From assembly GCF_058153355.1 (NCBI RefSeq), contig NZ_CM177019.1: a stretch of 64,000 bases of DNA; one strand, written 5' to 3'. Below the pieces are notes generated by a model. That model was not told the origin of the DNA. It saw only the letters and a program-made list of their open reading frames with translations, and ran no database searches. A program made the translations under genes and the position numbers. Positions 9,212 to 45,783 of the stretch are shown piece by piece. Position 1 is the stretch's first letter, and each line of letters opens with the position of its first letter.

Positions 9212-11977
9212 TCAATGTGATGAATCATAAACATTATTCAAAAATAGATTTTGTTCTTTTCGGCGTCGTATAACAAGGCCAGCAACTCCGCCATTTGTAA
9301 TATCAAGAAATTCATTGGAGGCACCTATATAATCCTTTTGATTAAGTTTAGAATTCAAATTCGGTGCCTTACTCATGCTCCCCATATTAAACAATAAACT
9401 TATTAACGCATCAAATTCGTACTGATATAAATCCACACTCACTGTTCTTTTAAGCTCACTAACAAAACCAGATAAACGCTCTTCAAATAACTCATCAGCT
9501 TTAGCAATTGTTATTCCATGCTGAAATTCTTCTGGTAAAACTATATCATTGCAACGTTGTGTAGCAATTAAATGTCCATAACCTATAGTACAGTAACCTT
9601 CTGAATCATTATATGCTGTTAGTTGTAAATATTCCCATTCTTTTATAAAACCCTTACCTTTATTTGATACATTCAAATCTGCAATGGCGATCCTTTCAGC
9701 AGTTTGTTCTTCGTTAAAACTATTGATGTACCCCTCCATCAATATATCAATTGGATCATGTAAATCATCCCGTCTATAAAATGGAGGTATTTGTGTATTA
9801 TTCGGCGGAGGCGCTCCATTGTTTCCTGGATAGTATTCAAAATGCAACATATAAACCACTTCTTCCCCAGGGATTATAACTGGAGGCCTCCCTGTATCAG
9901 GTTTAATCATCAACCCTGTTTTGGCAATTATTGCCCCTTGCATAATATGATCATTAATCTTTACTAAAATACTTGATGGATCAACTTCACCATACCGCAC
10001 ATAGAAATGCCGACCATCTCTAGTCGAGTGCTCAATCGTAACTTGCCAAGTACCGTAATAGTATCGAGAAATAGCTCTTACTATTCCGTTGCAAACCGAA
10101 ACAATATCAGACTTCGGTTCCGTATATAGATCACGCGCTCCATGTTTTCTATTACCATTATTACGATTTCGTCCAAATATAGCTTGAGAGGCATTTCGAT
10201 CTGTCAAGGCAGCAGCCCAAAAATAATTTTTCCACTTTCCATTTTTGTCATTATTAGGTTTTACTTTTAAAGGAAAAATAATTTGATTTGATTTTTTCTG
10301 AGATAATGAATCTAAAAACACAACCGGATGAAAATGCCACACAGCATCATCACTATTAAACGGAGATACCCCGCTCATCCACTCCAGATCCAGCTGCCAC
10401 TTCTCACAGTATGCCACTTCCTCTGTATCCAGATCTTTATAAAATCCTTCCCACCGCCCTGTCGAGCGCCCTCCGTACCATTCGCTGTGGTGTTTAACTA
10501 TCAGATGATTCACCACATTTCTCACCAGTGGTTCACGCACGATCAGCGCCTGTCTGATCTCTTCCTCCGTCACTTTTCCATCACCGTCCTGATCCATACC
10601 CGCCATCAGCTCACGATAAAAGGGCGGTACCTGCTCATACAGCCACTCATCTCCCTGTTCTGCGGCACGGCTTATTGAGTCAAACGCTTCCGGCACCCAT
10701 CCTTCGTACGGGCTGTACGTCATGTCACCGCTGCTGTTCTCCTCCAGCGGTTGAAAACCCAGCTTCAGTAAATCATACTGTCCGGCCTCTTCAACATCCT
10801 TTTGTGGCAGCCAGCCGGTTCCGGTGATATTAAACCACCACTGCTGCGATTCATCCGTGACTGGTGTCGTGGCTTCCCGCGGAAGAACGCGCTGAGCACC
10901 CAGCGTGGCTGCGGTTGCGGTAAATACCTCCTGTCCCGGAACGGCCTGCCGGGTGTATAAAATTATCCCTTTTGGTGCCAGAACAGTCCGTTTTTCTCCC
11001 TTAACGCCTGCCGGGTTGGATAAGAACTTTGGCATATTCGGGTCTGTACTCAGAACCTCCAGATGGACGAACCACTCGCGCTCAATCTCACCGCTTCCCT
11101 CGCCAGGATAATCCTCGCATCCCATAAATCCGACCGGTGTTCCGGCACTGACTTTCCACTCTTCCGTTTCGTCGACCGTCTGTACCGAGTCAAAAATGCC
11201 TTTTGCCTTCGCCTTCTGCATCCACTCAGGCATCAGCATCTGTATTTCGCCATCTGACTCCATCAGATCCGGATCCAGGGTCACCCAGTACTGCTCATTC
11301 CCCGGTTTATTGCCTTCCAGCAGGCGAACCAGTCCGAATGTCGTCAGGACCGGCTGGCCGTTATTGGTCACGTAAAAACGTCCGGTCCGGGATGACACAA
11401 ACCGATCTCCCGCATTAAGTGTCCTGTTTCCGCTGATTTTCGGGGGTATCCAGTACGTGGCATGATCTCCGCTTTCCTGCCCCTCGGGAAGGCCGTTCTT
11501 TCCCGGGATGTATCGGTGCAGCAATATGCCACCATGCCCGGTTTTAACTTTATAGCAGGGGGAGCCGGGATAATCGTTCACCGGGGCCAGATGCATATAG
11601 AGACAGTAAAATTCCAGCCAGCTTTCTTTTTTTTGCGGGTCTGGCTGGCACTGCGATTTCACCAGAACAAATGTGCTGCTGTAACGGAGTTGCTGCCCTT
11701 TGTAGGGGCCTTTCAGGTAATCATTATTTATCCGGTACGCCGCAATGGTGCCATCGGCCATAAACTGAAGAGGAACCGGTTCTCCGGTAGCGGCGGTATC
11801 CGGTTTCAGGGCTGATAACGGATTAGACACGTCACTGATATGTATCCCGCCGTGCCACAGCCCGTTTCCACCCAGCAGCCAGGTTCCGTGCGCTTCTTTG
11901 TCAATAAGCCGCATTATCTCATCCAGTGAGCGAAACTCTTTGCCTTCTTTATCCCTGATGGGATGGCTGATTTTCAT
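9212..11977 (-). CDS. Candidate T6SS cargo effector: multidomain peptidoglycan hydrolase (M23/LytM-like domain plus C-terminal T4-lysozyme-like GH24 domain), with an EF-hand-like loop
   Basis: 921-aa ORF starting 9 bp after the vgrG stop with an AAGGA ribosome-binding site; C-terminus carries the phage-lysozyme signature EWEYLQLTAYNDSEGYCTIGYGHL; middle region has KHGARD (HxxxD) ... YMLHFEY (M23-like); DQDGDGKVTEEE calcium-binding-type loop. Confidence 0.7.
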   Translation of the reverse strand: MKISHPIRDKEGKEFRSLDEIMRLIDKEAHGTWLLGGNGLWHGGIHISDVSNPLSALKPDTAATGEPVPLQFMADGTIAAYRINNDYLKGPYKGQQLRYSSTFVLVKSQCQPDPQKKESWLEFYCLYMHLAPVNDYPGSPCYKVKTGHGGILLHRYIPGKNGLPEGQESGDHATYWIPPKISGNRTLNAGDRFVSSRTGRFYVTNNGQPVLTTFGLVRLLEGNKPGNEQYWVTLDPDLMESDGEIQMLMPEWMQKAKAKGIFDSVQTVDETEEWKVSAGTPVGFMGCEDYPGEGSGEIEREWFVHLEVLSTDPNMPKFLSNPAGVKGEKRTVLAPKGIILYTRQAVPGQEVFTATAATLGAQRVLPREATTPVTDESQQWWFNITGTGWLPQKDVEEAGQYDLLKLGFQPLEENSSGDMTYSPYEGWVPEAFDSISRAAEQGDEWLYEQVPPFYRELMAGMDQDGDGKVTEEEIRQALIVREPLVRNVVNHLIVKHHSEWYGGRSTGRWEGFYKDLDTEEVAYCEKWQLDLEWMSGVSPFNSDDAVWHFHPVVFLDSLSQKKSNQIIFPLKVKPNNDKNGKWKNYFWAAALTDRNASQAIFGRNRNNGNRKHGARDLYTEPKSDIVSVCNGIVRAISRYYYGTWQVTIEHSTRDGRHFYVRYGEVDPSSILVKINDHIMQGAIIAKTGLMIKPDTGRPPVIIPGEEVVYMLHFEYYPGNNGAPPPNNTQIPPFYRRDDLHDPIDILMEGYINSFNEEQTAERIAIADLNVSNKGKGFIKEWEYLQLTAYNDSEGYCTIGYGHLIATQRCNDIVLPEEFQHGITIAKADELFEERLSGFVSELKRTVSVDLYQYEFDALISLLFNMGSMSKAPNLNSKLNQKDYIGASNEFLDITNGGVAGLVIRRRKEQNLFLNNVYDSSH

Positions 11978-11986
11978 GTTCAGTCC

Positions 11987-14186
11987 TTATCGTGAGAATC
12001 TTCCCGGCCGTTGTGGCGGTACCTTATCCTGCTGGGGAGGATCAAAGGCTTCCTGTACACTTTTCCGTGGTGGCTCCGCCCCTTCAGTTCCAGGTCCGCC
12101 ATTGTCATAATCTGCCAGCGCTTTCAAAACCGCCGGTCGTAGCGTCGGCACCGGCGTTCCCGGACTACCGCCGCTATTGAGATTGATTTTCGGCCCGACG
12201 ATGTCCACGCCCCCTGAATGGATGACCACAAACGAACCACCCACCTTTAGGGTGATTTTACCGCCACTCTCCAGTACGATTTCATTCCGGACCTTCATTC
12301 CCAGCGCACCGGTAATCTTCCTCGCCAGGTCGCCCTTCACCTCCAGACTGTGCTTTCCCTCCACCAGGCTGATATGGTTCCCCGTCGTCTTATGCTCCTG
12401 CTTCCCTTCCACCGTCACTTTACGGTCGTTTCTGACATACAGGCCGTCATCGTGACTCACGCTCACCGTCCGGTCATTCGTCACCTTCAGCGTCTGGTCA
12501 TTACGTACCGTTATGCGCCGGTCGTTCGCCACCGTGATACTCTGGTCGTGACCCCCTTCTTTTCTGGTGCCGACCTCAACCGTCTGCCCCTTCACCACCC
12601 TTATCTTCTGGTCGTTACCGATGGTCTCCGTATGGTCATGCTTCACGTCCGTCGTCCGGTCGTTAAGCACCTCCGTGTCCATGTTCTTCTGCGCGTGGAT
12701 ATACACCTGCTCACTGTCCGTCGCATCCTCGAAACGCAGTTCATTAAAGCCGCTTCCTTTATAGGTCTTCGAGCGGATGGTCATCTGCGTCCGCGTGCCC
12801 GGTAAATCCCCCGGTGAACGGTTATCTTCATGGTAGGTCCGCCCCGTCACAATGGGCTGGTCCGGGTCGCCGTTCAGAAAGTCCACTATCACTTCCTGAC
12901 CCACACGCGGTATCGCCAGATTGCCGAACCCCGGTCCCGCCCATGCCTGCGACACCCGTATCCAGCACGAACTCTCCTCCGTCATCCCGTGATAACGGTC
13001 CCAGTGAAACTTCACCCGTACCCGGCCATGCTCGTCGCAGAATATCTCCTCACCCTTCGGCCCGGTCACGATGGCACTCTGCGGGCCGTCCACCTTCGGC
13101 TTCGGCAGCGGCGCGTGACGCCACGTCCTGTCTGCCGGTATCACCTCAAACTGATTGCTCAGTGTCGTCCCTTCACCGTGACTCCCGTGCAGCGCCTGCG
13201 GCTGTTCTCCCCGCAGTGTGCTTCCCACAACCTGCCATTCCCGGTTCAGCGTCTCTGAGGGATGGCCCGTCAGCCGGAACCGCGTTCCCGGCCACAGCCG
13301 CGCCGTGTTACACACCCCGCTCGCCGTCTCCGCCCCGTTCCGCCACCCTTCCGTCTGGTAACGCGCAAAATCCTGGCCATGCTGCTCATCCTTGAAACGC
13401 CCCGGATAATCAAATATCTCGTACTGCGTTCCCTGCCCGTTCAGGCTCTCCCCGTCATGGCTGTAGTACCCCGGCCACCCCGGCGTTTTGAACGTATAAT
13501 CCTGCGTCTCCACCGACGCCACGCTTATCTGCGCACGGTAACGAAACTCACTGATGTACTCCGTCGTTCCCCCGGTCGTGGTATTCGGGTTAAACGCCAG
13601 CGCCCCCATTCCCGTCAGCCCCGCCACGTCATCACACACCGCCAGCTTCTGCTCCGGCCCTTCCTGACCGCAGCGCTCATAAAAGAAGATACCTTCCTCC
13701 GCCCACAGCCGGGTCAGGAATGCCAGGTCGCTCTCCCCGTACTGCACGCAGAACTCCCGCGCCGGGTGCGCCTCATAGAACAGCGGCATCCACGCCGTCA
13801 CCCCGTTCTCTCTCAGAAGCTGTGCTGATATCGTCTGAATGTCCTGCTGCTGGAAGATACGGAAGTTCTGCCGTAACCCTGCCCGCCACAGCGGCGGGCT
13901 GATGCTCAGGGAATAACGCATCTGCCAGTCGTTGTTCTCACCGAGCTGCACCTCCGTCACGATACCGCTGACGTAACGCTGCGGGATATCACCCTGCCAG
14001 ACCGTCAGCACCGCGCTCTTCTCCAGAAAATCCTCCGCCATCAGGTCGGACAGCCCGCTGGCGATATCCACATCCAGGATGAACGACGTGCAGTGGTGCT
14101 GGTACAGACGGAAGCTCACCACCGCCGTCGCCATCTCCACGATACCGTCCACCGACAGCGTGAAACGTAATCCTTCTGAGGACATA
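11987..14186 (-). CDS. vgrG: Type VI secretion spike protein VgrG (gp27/gp5-like)
   Basis: About 733 aa from MSSEGLRFTL; characteristic VgrG N-terminus, gp5-like beta-helix repeats (VTVxNDRxxTV...) and Pro-rich C-terminal tail; the maximal ORF extends 11 codons further upstream. Confidence 0.85.
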
Positions 14187-22026: not shown

Positions 22027-22700
22027 CAAACGTTCTGATTGTTGAAGATGAACAGGCTATTCGTCGCTTTCTGCGCACAGCGCTGGAGGGCGATGGGATG
22101 CGCGTCTTTGAGGCCGAAACGCTGCAACGCGGCTTGCTGGAAGCGGCAACCCGTAAGCCAGATTTGATTATTCTCGATCTCGGCCTGCCAGACGGTGATG
22201 GGATTGAGTTTATCCGCGACCTGCGCCAGTGGAGCGCGGTGCCAGTAATTGTGCTTTCCGCCCGCAGCGAAGAGAGCGACAAAATCGCCGCGCTGGATGC
22301 CGGAGCGGATGATTACCTGAGTAAGCCATTTGGTATTGGCGAATTACAGGCCCGTCTGCGCGTTGCTTTACGCCGCCACTCTGCTACCACCGCGCCCGAT
22401 CCGCTGGTGAAATTTTCTGATGTTACCGTCGATTTAGCCGCCCGCGTAATCCACCGCGGCGAGGAAGAGGTGCACCTCACACCGCTTGAGTTCCGCCTGC
22501 TGGCGGTGCTGCTCAACAACGCCGGAAAAGTGCTCACCCAGCGCCAGCTCCTCAACCAGGTGTGGGGGCCAAATGCGGTCGAACACAGCCACTATTTGCG
22601 TATATATATGGGGCATCTGCGACAAAAACTGGAGCAAGATCCCGCCCGCCCTCGCCATTTTATTACTGAAACCGGTATTGGGTATCGGTTTATGCTTTGA
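22023..22700 (+). CDS. kdpE: Response regulator KdpE (OmpR family)
   Basis: 225 aa; receiver domain plus winged-helix; overlaps kdpD stop by 4 bp. Confidence 0.9.
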   Translation: MTNVLIVEDEQAIRRFLRTALEGDGMRVFEAETLQRGLLEAATRKPDLIILDLGLPDGDGIEFIRDLRQWSAVPVIVLSARSEESDKIAALDAGADDYLSKPFGIGELQARLRVALRRHSATTAPDPLVKFSDVTVDLAARVIHRGEEEVHLTPLEFRLLAVLLNNAGKVLTQRQLLNQVWGPNAVEHSHYLRIYMGHLRQKLEQDPARPRHFITETGIGYRFML

Positions 22701-26894: not shown

Positions 26895-27034
26895 GTGTAG
26901 GGTCCAAACGCGGTCGAACACAGCAACTATTTGCGTAATTATATGAGGCATTTGCGACAAAAACTGGAACAGGATCTCGTCCGCCCCGCCATTTCATTAC
27001 TGAAACCGGTATTGGGTATCGGTTTATGCTTTGA
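26895..27034 (+). repeat. Diverged duplicate of the kdpE 3' end (last ~140 bp including stop)
   Basis: Aligns to 22561-22700 at roughly 85-90% identity, ending in the identical aaaccggtattgggtatcggtttatgctttga. Confidence 0.85.
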
Positions 27035-28394: not shown

Positions 28395-28493
28395 GCCGGA
28401 TGCGGCGTGAACGCCTTATCCGTCCTACAAAATAGTGCAAATTCAATATATTGCACCATCCTCGTAGGCCTGATGAACGTAGCGTATCAGGCT
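28395..28493. repeat. REP/BIME cluster (two inverted REP units)
   Basis: gccggatgcggcgtgaacgccttatccg..cctac and gtaggcctgatgaacgtagcgtatcaggc. Confidence 0.8.
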
Positions 28494-31846: not shown

Positions 31847-32140
31847 ATGGCCAAAGAACAAACGGACCGTACGACATTAGATCTGTTCGCGCACGAGCGT
31901 CGACCGGGACGACCGAAAACTAATCCGCTTTCGCGCGATGAACAGCTGCGTATTAATAAACGCAACCAGCTAAAACGCGACAAAGTACGTGGCCTTAAGC
32001 GTGTCGAACTGAAGCTGAACGCGGAAGCTGTCGAGGCACTGAACGAGCTGGCAGAATCGCGCAATATGAGCCGTAGCGAACTGATCGAAGAGATGTTAAT
32101 GCAGCAACTGGCGGCGCTGCGTAGTCAGGGCATCGTTTAA
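31847..32140 (+). CDS. ybfE: Small DNA-damage-inducible protein YbfE
   Basis: 97 aa from [14 protein letters not shown]; maximal ORF starts at 31778. Confidence 0.7.
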
Positions 32141-32279
32141 ATTTCCACTTTCATGTAGCACAGTGTGCAGTCCTGCTCGTTTGCTGATTCCGCAAGACTG
32201 CCTGTTCTGCTATGATTGCCTTTATCCGTGGGCAATTTTCCACCCCCATTTCAATAAGTTTCAAGAGGTTATTTCACTC

Positions 32280-32810
32280 ATGGCTATCACTGGCATCTTT
32301 TTCGGCAGCGACACCGGTAATACCGAAAATATCGCAAAAATGATTCAAAAACAGCTTGGTAAAGACGTTGCCGATGTCCATGACATTGCAAAAAGCAGCA
32401 AAGAAGATCTGGAAGCTTATGACATTCTGCTGCTGGGCATCCCAACCTGGTATTACGGCGAAGCGCAGTGTGACTGGGATGACTTCTTCCCGACTCTCGA
32501 AGAGATTGATTTCAATGGCAAACTGGTTGCGCTGTTTGGTTGTGGTGACCAGGAAGATTACGCTGAATACTTCTGTGACGCATTGGGCACCATCCGCGAC
32601 ATCATTGAACCGCGCGGTGCAACCATCGTTGGTCACTGGCCAACTGCGGGCTACCATTTCGAAGCATCAAAAGGTCTGGCAGATGACGACCACTTTGTCG
32701 GTCTGGCTATCGACGAAGACCGTCAGCCGGAACTGACCGCTGAACGTGTAGAAAAATGGGTTAAACAGATTTCTGAAGAATTGCATCTCGACGAAATTCT
32801 CAATGCCTGA
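32280..32810 (+). CDS. fldA: Flavodoxin 1
   Basis: 176 aa from [19 protein letters not shown] (FMN-binding loop). Confidence 0.9.
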
Positions 32811-33019
32811 TGTGATGCGGCGTAGACTCATGTCTACGCCGTATTAATAGATAATGCCAATCAAAATAATTGCTACAAATTTGTAACTTTTGCTGTTGTA
32901 CCTGTACAATGTCCCGGTGTTCAAGTGGCCTTGCCGTTGTAAATGTAAGCTGTGCCACGTTTTTATTAACAATATTTGCCAGGGACTTGTGGTTTTCATT
33001 TAGGCGTGGCAATTCTATA

Positions 33020-33106
33020 ATGATACGCATTATCTCAAGAGCAAATTCTGTCACTTCTCCTAATGAAGTGAACCGCTTAGTAACAGGACAGATTCCGCAT
33101 GACTGA
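33020..33106 (+). CDS. uof: fur upstream leader peptide Uof
   Basis: 28-aa ORF MIRIISRANSVTSPNEVNRLVTGQIPHD overlapping the fur start by 8 bp. Confidence 0.7.
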   Translation: MIRIISRANSVTSPNEVNRLVTGQIPHD

Positions 33107-33545
33107 TAACAATACCGCCCTAAAGAAAGCTGGCCTGAAAGTAACGCTTCCTCGTTTAAAAATCCTGGAAGTTCTTCAGGAGCCGGACAACCATCACGTC
33201 AGTGCGGAAGATTTATACAAACGTCTGATCGATATGGGTGAAGAAATTGGTCTGGCTACGGTATATCGCGTACTGAACCAGTTTGACGATGCTGGTATCG
33301 TCACCCGCCACAATTTTGAAGGCGGTAAATCCGTATTTGAACTGACACAGCAACATCACCACGATCACCTGATCTGCCTCGACTGCGGCAAGGTTATCGA
33401 ATTTAGTGATGATTCCATCGAAGCGCGTCAGCGTGAAATTGCCGCCAAACATGGCATTCGCCTGACTAACCACAGTCTCTATCTTTACGGTCACTGTGCC
33501 GAAGGCGATTGCCGCGAAGATGAGCACGCGCACGAAGGCAAATAA
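33099..33545 (+). CDS. fur: Ferric uptake regulator
   Basis: 148 aa; HHHDHLICLDCGK metal-binding motifs. Confidence 0.95.
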   Translation: MTDNNTALKKAGLKVTLPRLKILEVLQEPDNHHVSAEDLYKRLIDMGEEIGLATVYRVLNQFDDAGIVTRHNFEGGKSVFELTQQHHHDHLICLDCGKVIEFSDDSIEARQREIAAKHGIRLTNHSLYLYGHCAEGDCREDEHAHEGK

Positions 33546-33561
33546 GCCAGCCTGAACGAGA

Positions 33562-33589
33562 AAAGCCAACCTGCGGGTTGGCTTTTTTA
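33562..33589 (+). terminator. Rho-independent terminator after fur
   Basis: agccaacc..ggttggct hairpin followed by tttttt. Confidence 0.7.
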
Positions 33590-33628
33590 TGCAAGGGAAA
33601 TAAGAAAAGCGAGAGTTACAGCTCTCAC

Positions 33629-33955
33629 TTATTTGTTATTACTGCGAATTTCCTGCCAGACTTTATCACAATCGGCTTTCACCGCCTGATCATTTCCGGT
33701 TTGCGTTGCACGCAGACACTGCTGATAATCCAGTACGCGTACACTTTCCTGCTCGGCAAACTGCTGATGTTGTTTCTCTTTCTTCAGCACGTTTAACACG
33801 CTCTGACAGGCTTCAATTTTTTCCGGCGAACCTTGCGCGGTGTTGATACAGGCGCTGTAAGCTTCTTTCAGATGGCTGTCTTCCTGTGGCGCGGTGGATT
33901 GTGCACAAGCCACCAGCCCCGATGCCATCATGGCGATGAGAATCAGTTTTTTCAT
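33629..33955 (-). CDS. chiQ: Lipoprotein ChiQ (YbfN)
   Basis: 108 aa with lipoprotein signal (LVAC); immediately downstream of chiP. Confidence 0.8.
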   Translation of the reverse strand: MKKLILIAMMASGLVACAQSTAPQEDSHLKEAYSACINTAQGSPEKIEACQSVLNVLKKEKQHQQFAEQESVRVLDYQQCLRATQTGNDQAVKADCDKVWQEIRSNNK

Positions 33956-45407: not shown

Positions 45408-45783
45408 CATGCCTGCAATCTGGGAAACCGGGGTAGAAAAAAACTTGCAGGCCATAACAGTATCTACGCAGCTCCTGCAATATATTGAATTTTCATGCTT
45501 TTGTAGGCAGGATAAGGCGTTCACGCCGCATCCGGCATGAACAAATCGCACTTTGTCAGCAATTTGGCCCCCGTAAAATATAACCATTTAATAAAACCCG
45601 CTAAAAATTATCGATTCATCAATAAATACATCCTCACACCAGACCTTTTTTCACCAATCGACAATCACCATTACGTTTTTTATTCCCCCCCTGCCAAATC
45701 GCTTGCGCACAGTGCTGCTTTGCGGCATTTTTTTAAACAAGCAAACACAACAAGCAACAAATACCAGGTTAACGGAGAAGGTT

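Follow-up and report, generated by a model that had tools for sequence, protein, structure and literature searches.

The interval 32811-33106 of the window (the whole 64-kb stretch of DNA analysed here) is almost certainly the known composite control region between E. coli fldA and fur. An earlier reading of the same DNA, made from the letters alone (the sequence-only reading), had placed a candidate Fur box at 32850-32873 and had overlooked the functional Fur operator, which is located at 33016-33034, on the -10 element of the fur promoter Pfur and on the ATG of the leader ORF uof. The useful outcome of this study is a corrected map, in which the Fur operator is found at 33016-33034, not at 32850, and the conserved AT-rich block that follows the fldA terminator is an OxyR-type site, a feature absent from the RefSeq records. 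The components themselves are not novel: uof, Fur autoregulation, OxyR control of fur and the 3' end of fldA have all been published already. The anatomy, matrix scores, conservation and covariation are presented here, and OxyR, Fur and RyhB regulation, the coupling of uof to fur and the 3' end are taken from papers.

The identity of the locus follows from several observations. The ORF list and the sequence give the order ybfE, fldA, a 28-codon ORF and fur within 32000-33800, followed by chiQ and chiP on the opposite strand. Over 32790-33120 the window differs from K-12 MG1655 by a single nucleotide, at 33059; its + strand corresponds to the minus strand of K-12, and window positions are converted to K-12 ones by subtracting them from 743,745. 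When 501 bases spanning the region were used as a query, matches were obtained in 5424 of the 5426 complete E. coli genomes, and the features annotated under the match are fldA, 'uof: fur leader peptide' and fur. The fldA-fur order is also retained in 79 of 80 related loci. For comparisons of the fldA-fur spacer, we used an alignment of the window with 63 other Enterobacteriaceae species. Rfam yields no family match within 32811-33106, its hits in the scanned stretch being located only outside this interval and far below the gathering scores. All of the strings quoted in the sequence-only reading occur at the positions given there. The features of the region are collected in Table 1.

Table 1. 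Features of the fldA-fur region of the window, ordered by position
Feature	Position	Strand	Basis or remark
fldA coding sequence (flavodoxin 1), upstream neighbour	32280..32810	+	ORF list, sequence, RefSeq annotation of identical DNA
fldA intrinsic terminator hairpin	32813..32846	+	GC-rich core stem 32818-32827 / 32832-32841, loop 32828-32831
OxyR-type site, ATAG-N7-CAAT-N7-ATTG-N7-TTTG, 37 bp	32847..32883	.	OxyR matrix, conservation
Earlier candidate Fur box GATAATGCCAATCAAAATAATTGC	32850..32873	+	look-alike inside the OxyR-type site
Puof, upstream uof-fur promoter: -35 TTGTAA 32881-32886, -10 TACAAT 32905-32910	32881..32910	+	promoter scan
Pfur: -35 TTTTCA 32993-32998, 17-bp spacer, -10 TATAAT 33016-33021	32993..33021	+	promoter scan, 10/12 matches
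Fur box TATAATGATACGCATTATC	33016..33034	+	consensus, Fur matrix, published binding; overlaps Pfur -10 and uof start codon
uof, 28-codon fur leader ORF	33020..33106	+	translation, annotation
fur Shine-Dalgarno-like AGGA, inside uof	33085..33088	+	read from sequence
fur coding sequence	33099..33545	+	ORF list, annotation

Two scores single out the operator. With the 19-bp Fur consensus GATAATGATAATCATTATC and no more than 3 mismatches allowed, the entire 64 kb contains exactly one match, TATAATGATACGCATTATC at 33016-33034 (3 mismatches), and 100 shuffles of the window contain none. The second score comes from a Fur matrix trained on the best sites of 17 other K-12 Fur-regulated promoter regions, with the fur locus excluded (fepA-fes, fepD-entS, fepB-entC, ryhB, fhuA, cirA, fiu, fecI, fecA, tonB, exbB, fhuE, fhuF, sodA, feoA, sufA and mntH). 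On this matrix the same site obtains 17.3 bits and ranks first, a score as high being seen in 0.05% of intergenic shuffles. Across Enterobacteriaceae the site is 83-92% identical to that of the window. It lies 166 nt downstream of the earlier candidate, inside the very interval (32811-33106) that the sequence-only reading had delimited. TATAATGATACGCATTATC is also the fur-promoter Fur box of recent gel-shift and reporter experiments; the published 110-bp gel-shift fragment corresponds to window 33000-33109 and does not include the 32850 box, and the functional operator is described as overlapping the -10 element of Pfur (Pfura). The second-best hit of the matrix, 16.2 bits at 12173-12191, falls in a stretch matching T6SS vgrG and an adjacent gene and was treated as a chance match. 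That part of the window (11700-12700) matches a type VI secretion vgrG/tssI region; no more than 3 of the 5426 complete E. coli genomes cover it to at least 80%, and in those three it occupies a different chromosomal position.

Because the -10 element of Pfur is buried in the Fur box, iron-loaded Fur represses this promoter directly. The uof ATG (33020-33022) belongs to the same TATAATG and overlaps both the -10 element and the Fur box. Pfur transcripts would begin near 33028, inside uof, and the literature places the fura and furb start sites inside the uof ORF. Such transcripts would therefore be devoid of the uof start codon and unable to translate uof, so that coupling would be possible only on transcripts from Puof or on those reading through from fldA. 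Northern blots detect both a uof-fur mRNA and a shorter fur mRNA. Between Puof and Pfur there is also TGTAAGCTGTGCCACG (32944-32959), with 7 of 10 matches to the CRP core TGTGA-N6-TCACA, which is possibly the CAP site described for fur in older work.

For the site proposed in the sequence-only reading, the resemblance to a Fur box appears to be real but weak, below that of most validated sites. Its first 19 bp (32850-32868) match the consensus at 14 positions, i.e. with 5 mismatches, and so close a match (no more than 5 mismatches) turns up in 1.1% of shuffled versions of the 288-bp intergenic spacer and 1.5 times per shuffled window. On the Fur matrix they obtain 9.75 bits and rank 16th in the 64-kb window, a score within chance: shuffled windows contain 9.0 +/- 2.8 such hits, and at least one is found in 10.7% of intergenic shuffles. 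By comparison, bona fide Fur sites scored by leave-one-out have a median of about 19 bits, only two of the values being lower than 10 (7.0 and 8.3). In other words, the Fur-box matrix scan, which the sequence-only reading had itself suggested as a check, gives no above-threshold match at 32850. The Fur-like bases are not conserved either. In the 64 Enterobacteriaceae loci, the block orthologous to 32850-32873 has a median Fur score of 4.7 bits, 9.75 bits being attained in only 2 of them, and even in other Escherichia the score is low (E. albertii, 4.6 bits; another Escherichia genome, 6.1 bits), which suggests that these bases are not under selection as a Fur site.

What the block does fit is OxyR. 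The segment 32847-32883 carries four ATAG-like elements at 10-bp spacing, and it comes first in the window already with an untrained consensus seed, ATAGnTnnnAnCTAT-N7-ATAGnTnnnAnCTAT. We also trained an OxyR matrix on 10 other K-12 promoters (oxyS, katG, ahpC, dps, grxA, trxC, hemH, sufA, mntH and fhuF); the training sites were chosen by a seeded search and some of them are possibly wrong, but the untrained seed yields the same top hit. On this matrix 32847-32883 obtains 23.8 bits and ranks first in 64 kb, the runner-up having 13.8 bits. The best value in 100 whole-window shuffles is 18.8 bits, and none of 2000 intergenic shuffles reaches 23.8 bits. Each of the 64 Enterobacteriaceae loci has its best OxyR hit at the corresponding position (median, 24.7 bits), and the site can still be discerned in Erwinia, Pantoea, Pectobacterium and Dickeya. 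The block 32845-32912 belongs to the best-conserved ones of the fldA-fur spacer. Judging from these motif matches, the earlier box would be the promoter-distal half of an OxyR-type site, its GATAATG being made up of an OxyR ATAG element and free spacer bases. The bases responsible for the Fur-like GATAATG at 32850 lie where the OxyR motif has a free N7 spacer, and they vary even within Escherichia. The OxyR seed scan also came across identical 37-mers 4.3 kb apart, at 22662-22698 and 26996-27032, and therefore this part of the window contains some repeated sequence.

The end of the OxyR-type site (32883) overlaps the -35 element of Puof at 32881-32886, and both hexamers of this promoter are strongly conserved in the spacer alignment. 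Zheng et al. (1999) are said to have described OxyR control of fur. Published work also states that OxyR controls fur, and according to the literature uof has a start site of its own, located 5' of the uof ORF. In the arrangement that we propose, OxyR bound at 32847-32883 would activate Puof, transcription would start near 32917, and the transcript would consist of a leader of about 100 nt followed by uof and then fur.

The sequence-only reading also pointed to a hairpin right after fldA, and this structure is real. The string GCGGCGTAGACTCATGTCTACGCCG at 32817-32841, which was also called as an inverted repeat, folds with -26 kcal/mol compared with -10.6 +/- 2.5 for dinucleotide shuffles (z = -6.1), and none of 200 shuffles is as stable. 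A strong GC-rich hairpin is present 5-15 nt 3' of the fldA stop codon in nearly all of 78 Enterobacterales loci. The stem sequences differ widely among these loci, and an alignment of 30 loci reveals compensatory changes in 9 of the 10 base pairs; thus, it is the structure that is conserved across Enterobacterales. Term-seq data place the primary fldA 3' end at K-12 710897(-), i.e. window 32848, 7 nt past the core stem, with an intrinsic-terminator score of 19.7 (a value of at least 3 suggests an intrinsic terminator) and a Rho score of 0.92. The hairpin tail, UAUUAAU, is an interrupted U tract rather than a U-rich tract directly following the stem, and a simple terminator scan did not call the fldA hairpin. 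Both ybfE-fldA-uof-fur and fldA-fur cotranscripts have been reported. The hairpin is a Rho-independent fldA terminator, leaky to judge from the imperfect U tract and the reported cotranscripts, and most fldA transcripts would end at it, at about 32848.

As to the leader ORF, the sequence-only reading was exact: the 28 codons at 33020-33106 overlap the start of fur by 8 nt and represent the annotated uof (in K-12 MG1655, uof / b4637, 'RyhB-regulated fur leader peptide'). The translation is MIRIISRANSVTSPNEVNRLVTGQIPHD, followed by the stop codon, and the overlap with fur, the ATG of which is at 33099, reads ATGACTGA. The single nucleotide difference at 33059 turns codon 14 into CCT (Pro), compared with TCT (Ser) in K-12; the exact 61-nt Pro14 allele is a minority variant, present in 393 of 5424 complete E. 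coli genomes. Codon 6 is UCA (TCA), through which decoding is said to become dependent on MiaB, an iron-sulfur enzyme. Translation of uof, its coupling to fur and the effects of RyhB and MiaB have reportedly been demonstrated in published experiments, RyhB and the MiaB-dependent decoding of the UCA codon both lowering fur translation at low iron. The translational coupling that had been deduced from the overlap likewise agrees with the literature, in which reviews and papers citing Vecerek et al. 2007 give the uof-fur overlap as the basis of coupling. On transcripts from Puof or on fldA read-through transcripts, ribosomes would translate uof and stop at the UGA that overlaps the fur AUG (AUGACUGA); because of this overlap of stop and start codons, translation of fur would be coupled to that of uof.

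RNAduplex applied to full-length RyhB and leader RNAs returned meaningless long duplexes, and the RyhB core alone gave several weak sites of -12 to -14 kcal/mol, none of them prominent; a published benchmark found the interaction between RyhB and the fur leader to be likewise unpredictable. Folding of the single sequence, which is weak evidence, leaves the fur AGGA mostly paired (unpaired probability of about 0.3) and the AUG open. For the uof-fur leader, RNAalifold returned only an invariant 3-bp GGA/UCC hairpin and no significantly covarying structure. A hand-defined hairpin within uof (33052-33070, CACTTC / GAAGTG) has 81% of cells paired compared with 36-56% for slid controls and is kept in most relatives, its covariation being no better than that of shuffles.

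Comparison of uof across relatives is our modest addition to what is known. A uORF starting from the ATG of TATAATG is present wherever this motif is kept, and the position at which the ORF ends is variable. An ORF of 28-30 codons ending in the ATGACTGA overlap is found in 38 loci, the window included, which represent Escherichia, most Citrobacter, Enterobacter, Kosakonia, Kluyvera, Phytobacter and Leclercia; among these intact loci the length varies in frame (79, 82 or 85 nt). A 1-nt length change produces a 16-codon ORF from the same TATAATG start in Salmonella enterica subsp. arizonae, Citrobacter sedlakii and a few others (loci L027, L005, L014 and L017, about 1419-1500), and the stop codon of this ORF precedes fur by about 30 nt. 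In Klebsiella, Raoultella, Atlantibacter, Cedecea, Buttiauxella, Erwinia and Pantoea, the uORF is shorter or absent. Because the 16-codon form stops before fur, the overlapping, coupled form of uof appears to be confined to part of Enterobacteriaceae. Codon 6 is kept as UCA in Escherichia and Citrobacter and is CCA in Enterobacter. In the middle of uof, identity at codon positions 1, 2 and 3 is 0.70, 0.75 and 0.69, respectively, i.e. there is no relaxation at the third position. By comparison, the 24 nt from the fur SD to ATGACTGA (33083-33106) are 94-99% identical in the 63 Enterobacteriaceae species, uof wobble positions included, with an identity of 0.94 in species without the ORF and 0.99 in those with it. 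This alignment indicates an RNA- or DNA-level constraint on 33083-33106 that is stronger than a ribosome-binding site alone usually needs. Given both the lack of third-position relaxation and the conservation of these 24 nt with or without the ORF, the sequence of the uof peptide is probably unconstrained. Leader ORFs are typically free of constraint on the peptide, the act of translation being what matters.

Each of the three elements, the look-alike, the hairpin and the ORF, might nonetheless be read differently. It is conceivable that 32844-32880 is a genuine low-affinity auxiliary Fur site, competing with OxyR or repressing Puof in addition to the main operator at Pfur. Weak positive Fur matrix scores recur there in 6-bp phase (32844, 32850, 32856 and 32862), a pattern known from real Fur arrays and published clusters of sites, and the 9.75 bits do exceed the two weakest leave-one-out values of the training set. 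Consensus matches as numerous as the 14 of 19 are infrequent in intergenic shuffles, and a published expression table lists the uof transcript as iron- and Fur-responsive, a response for which the main box already accounts. However, the matrix score itself is at the level of chance both in the window and in intergenic shuffles, and it collapses in the orthologous blocks of other Escherichia. The block would occupy about -67 to -44 relative to the inferred promoter, an unusual position for a repressor to bind; the 110-bp fragment, which lacks it, is shifted in the published assay, and those bases that are conserved are explained by the OxyR model. Taken together, these data make an auxiliary Fur site highly improbable, and we prefer an OxyR-type site that happens to look like a Fur box. 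For the hairpin, it could be argued that it is a REP-type repeat or a mere 3' stabiliser against exonucleases rather than a terminator, since it has GATGCGGCGT in common with the two true REP elements of the window, its U tract is poor, the simple terminator scan missed it and fldA-fur cotranscripts exist. Yet there is no likeness to the REP copies outside these 10 nt, on which ground we rejected a REP origin, and the hairpin is present in a single copy per genome. Its conservation by structure, not sequence, right after the fldA stop codon across the order, as well as the Term-seq 3' end 7 nt past the core stem with a score of 19.7 and no Rho dependence, also argue against such a role, which we consider unlikely as the sole explanation. 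A stabilising function may well exist alongside termination, as Term-seq by itself does not distinguish a terminated end from one trimmed back to the hairpin. The REP elements of the window, at 28395-28440 and 45490-45535, are two typical ones (GCCGGATGCGGCGTGAACGCCTTATCCG.CCTAC), and the flanks that follow the two are nearly identical (…AAATTCAATATATT), pointing to a larger repeated unit.

The remaining alternative concerns uof, which might be a by-product and not a selected ORF, with the ATG supplied by TATAATG, the 3' end by the fur ribosome-binding region and the frame in between open by chance. Several of the observations above would be expected in that case: the start codon is embedded in the -10 element and the Fur box, the middle of the ORF has no codon periodicity, the last 24 nt are similarly conserved whether the ORF is present or not, and Pfur transcripts begin inside it. 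The overlapping ORF is moreover missing or shortened in several lineages, namely Salmonella arizonae, Klebsiella, Raoultella, Atlantibacter, Cedecea, Buttiauxella, Erwinia and Pantoea. On the other hand, the absence of peptide constraint is normal for leader ORFs, and in 38 loci the 28-30-codon ORF is intact, has the same overlap with fur and changes in length only in frame. Published experiments reportedly demonstrate translation of uof, coupling to fur and the effects of RyhB and MiaB. We therefore regard an accidental ORF as very unlikely and keep to the view of uof as a translated leader coupled to fur.

One published data point deserves separate mention. Term-seq places a 3' end at window 33100 (K-12 710645, minus strand), which is the second base of the fur start codon and falls 6 nt short of the last base of the uof stop codon. 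Where the values were retrieved, it is supported by 137,000-181,000 reads, compared with 48,000 for the fldA terminator. Both its intrinsic-terminator score and its Rho score are 1.1, i.e. there is neither a terminator signature nor Rho dependence. It is flagged 'uORF' and uof-associated, apparently on all three growth-condition sheets, and is not discussed in the source paper. It is tempting to imagine that the uof leader is released as an abundant discrete RNA ending exactly at the fur start codon, but we hold this to be a long shot. If the end at 33100 did reflect a regulated cleavage or stop, or a fragment with a function in trans, such as the titration of RyhB, Fur homeostasis would have a new layer beyond coupling.

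More generally, the region illustrates that an AT-rich operator can resemble the Fur consensus even when it serves another regulator, and that the two are told apart by conservation of the regulator-specific bases. It also lends itself to comparison, element by element, with systems that are well known. The Fur operator of the fur promoter, which is the basis of Fur autoregulation, has an identical sequence here at 33016-33034, whereas the box of the sequence-only reading is situated 166 nt upstream and has 5 mismatches to the consensus instead of 3. The 32847-32883 site shares with the OxyR-activated promoters (oxyS, katG, ahpC, grxA and dps) the 37-bp, four-element layout with 10-bp spacing and an adjoining -35 element, and its 23.8 bits resemble the scores of the best OxyR training sites, grxA and ahpC; unlike in those promoters, the fourth element (TTTG) is poor in the E. 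coli fur site, and the borders given here are those predicted from the motif. With Rho-independent terminators that close the upstream gene in read-through operons, the fldA hairpin has in common a GC-rich covarying stem, a 3' end 7 nt further on and independence of Rho, whereas its U tract is interrupted and its tail overlaps the start of the OxyR-type site, both being consistent with leakiness. Finally, the uof of K-12 (Vecerek, Moll and Blasi 2007) occupies the same locus and likewise has 28 codons, the ATGACTGA overlap and UCA as codon 6, with 27 of 28 residues identical; the only departure is residue 14, Pro (CCT) here and Ser (TCT) there.
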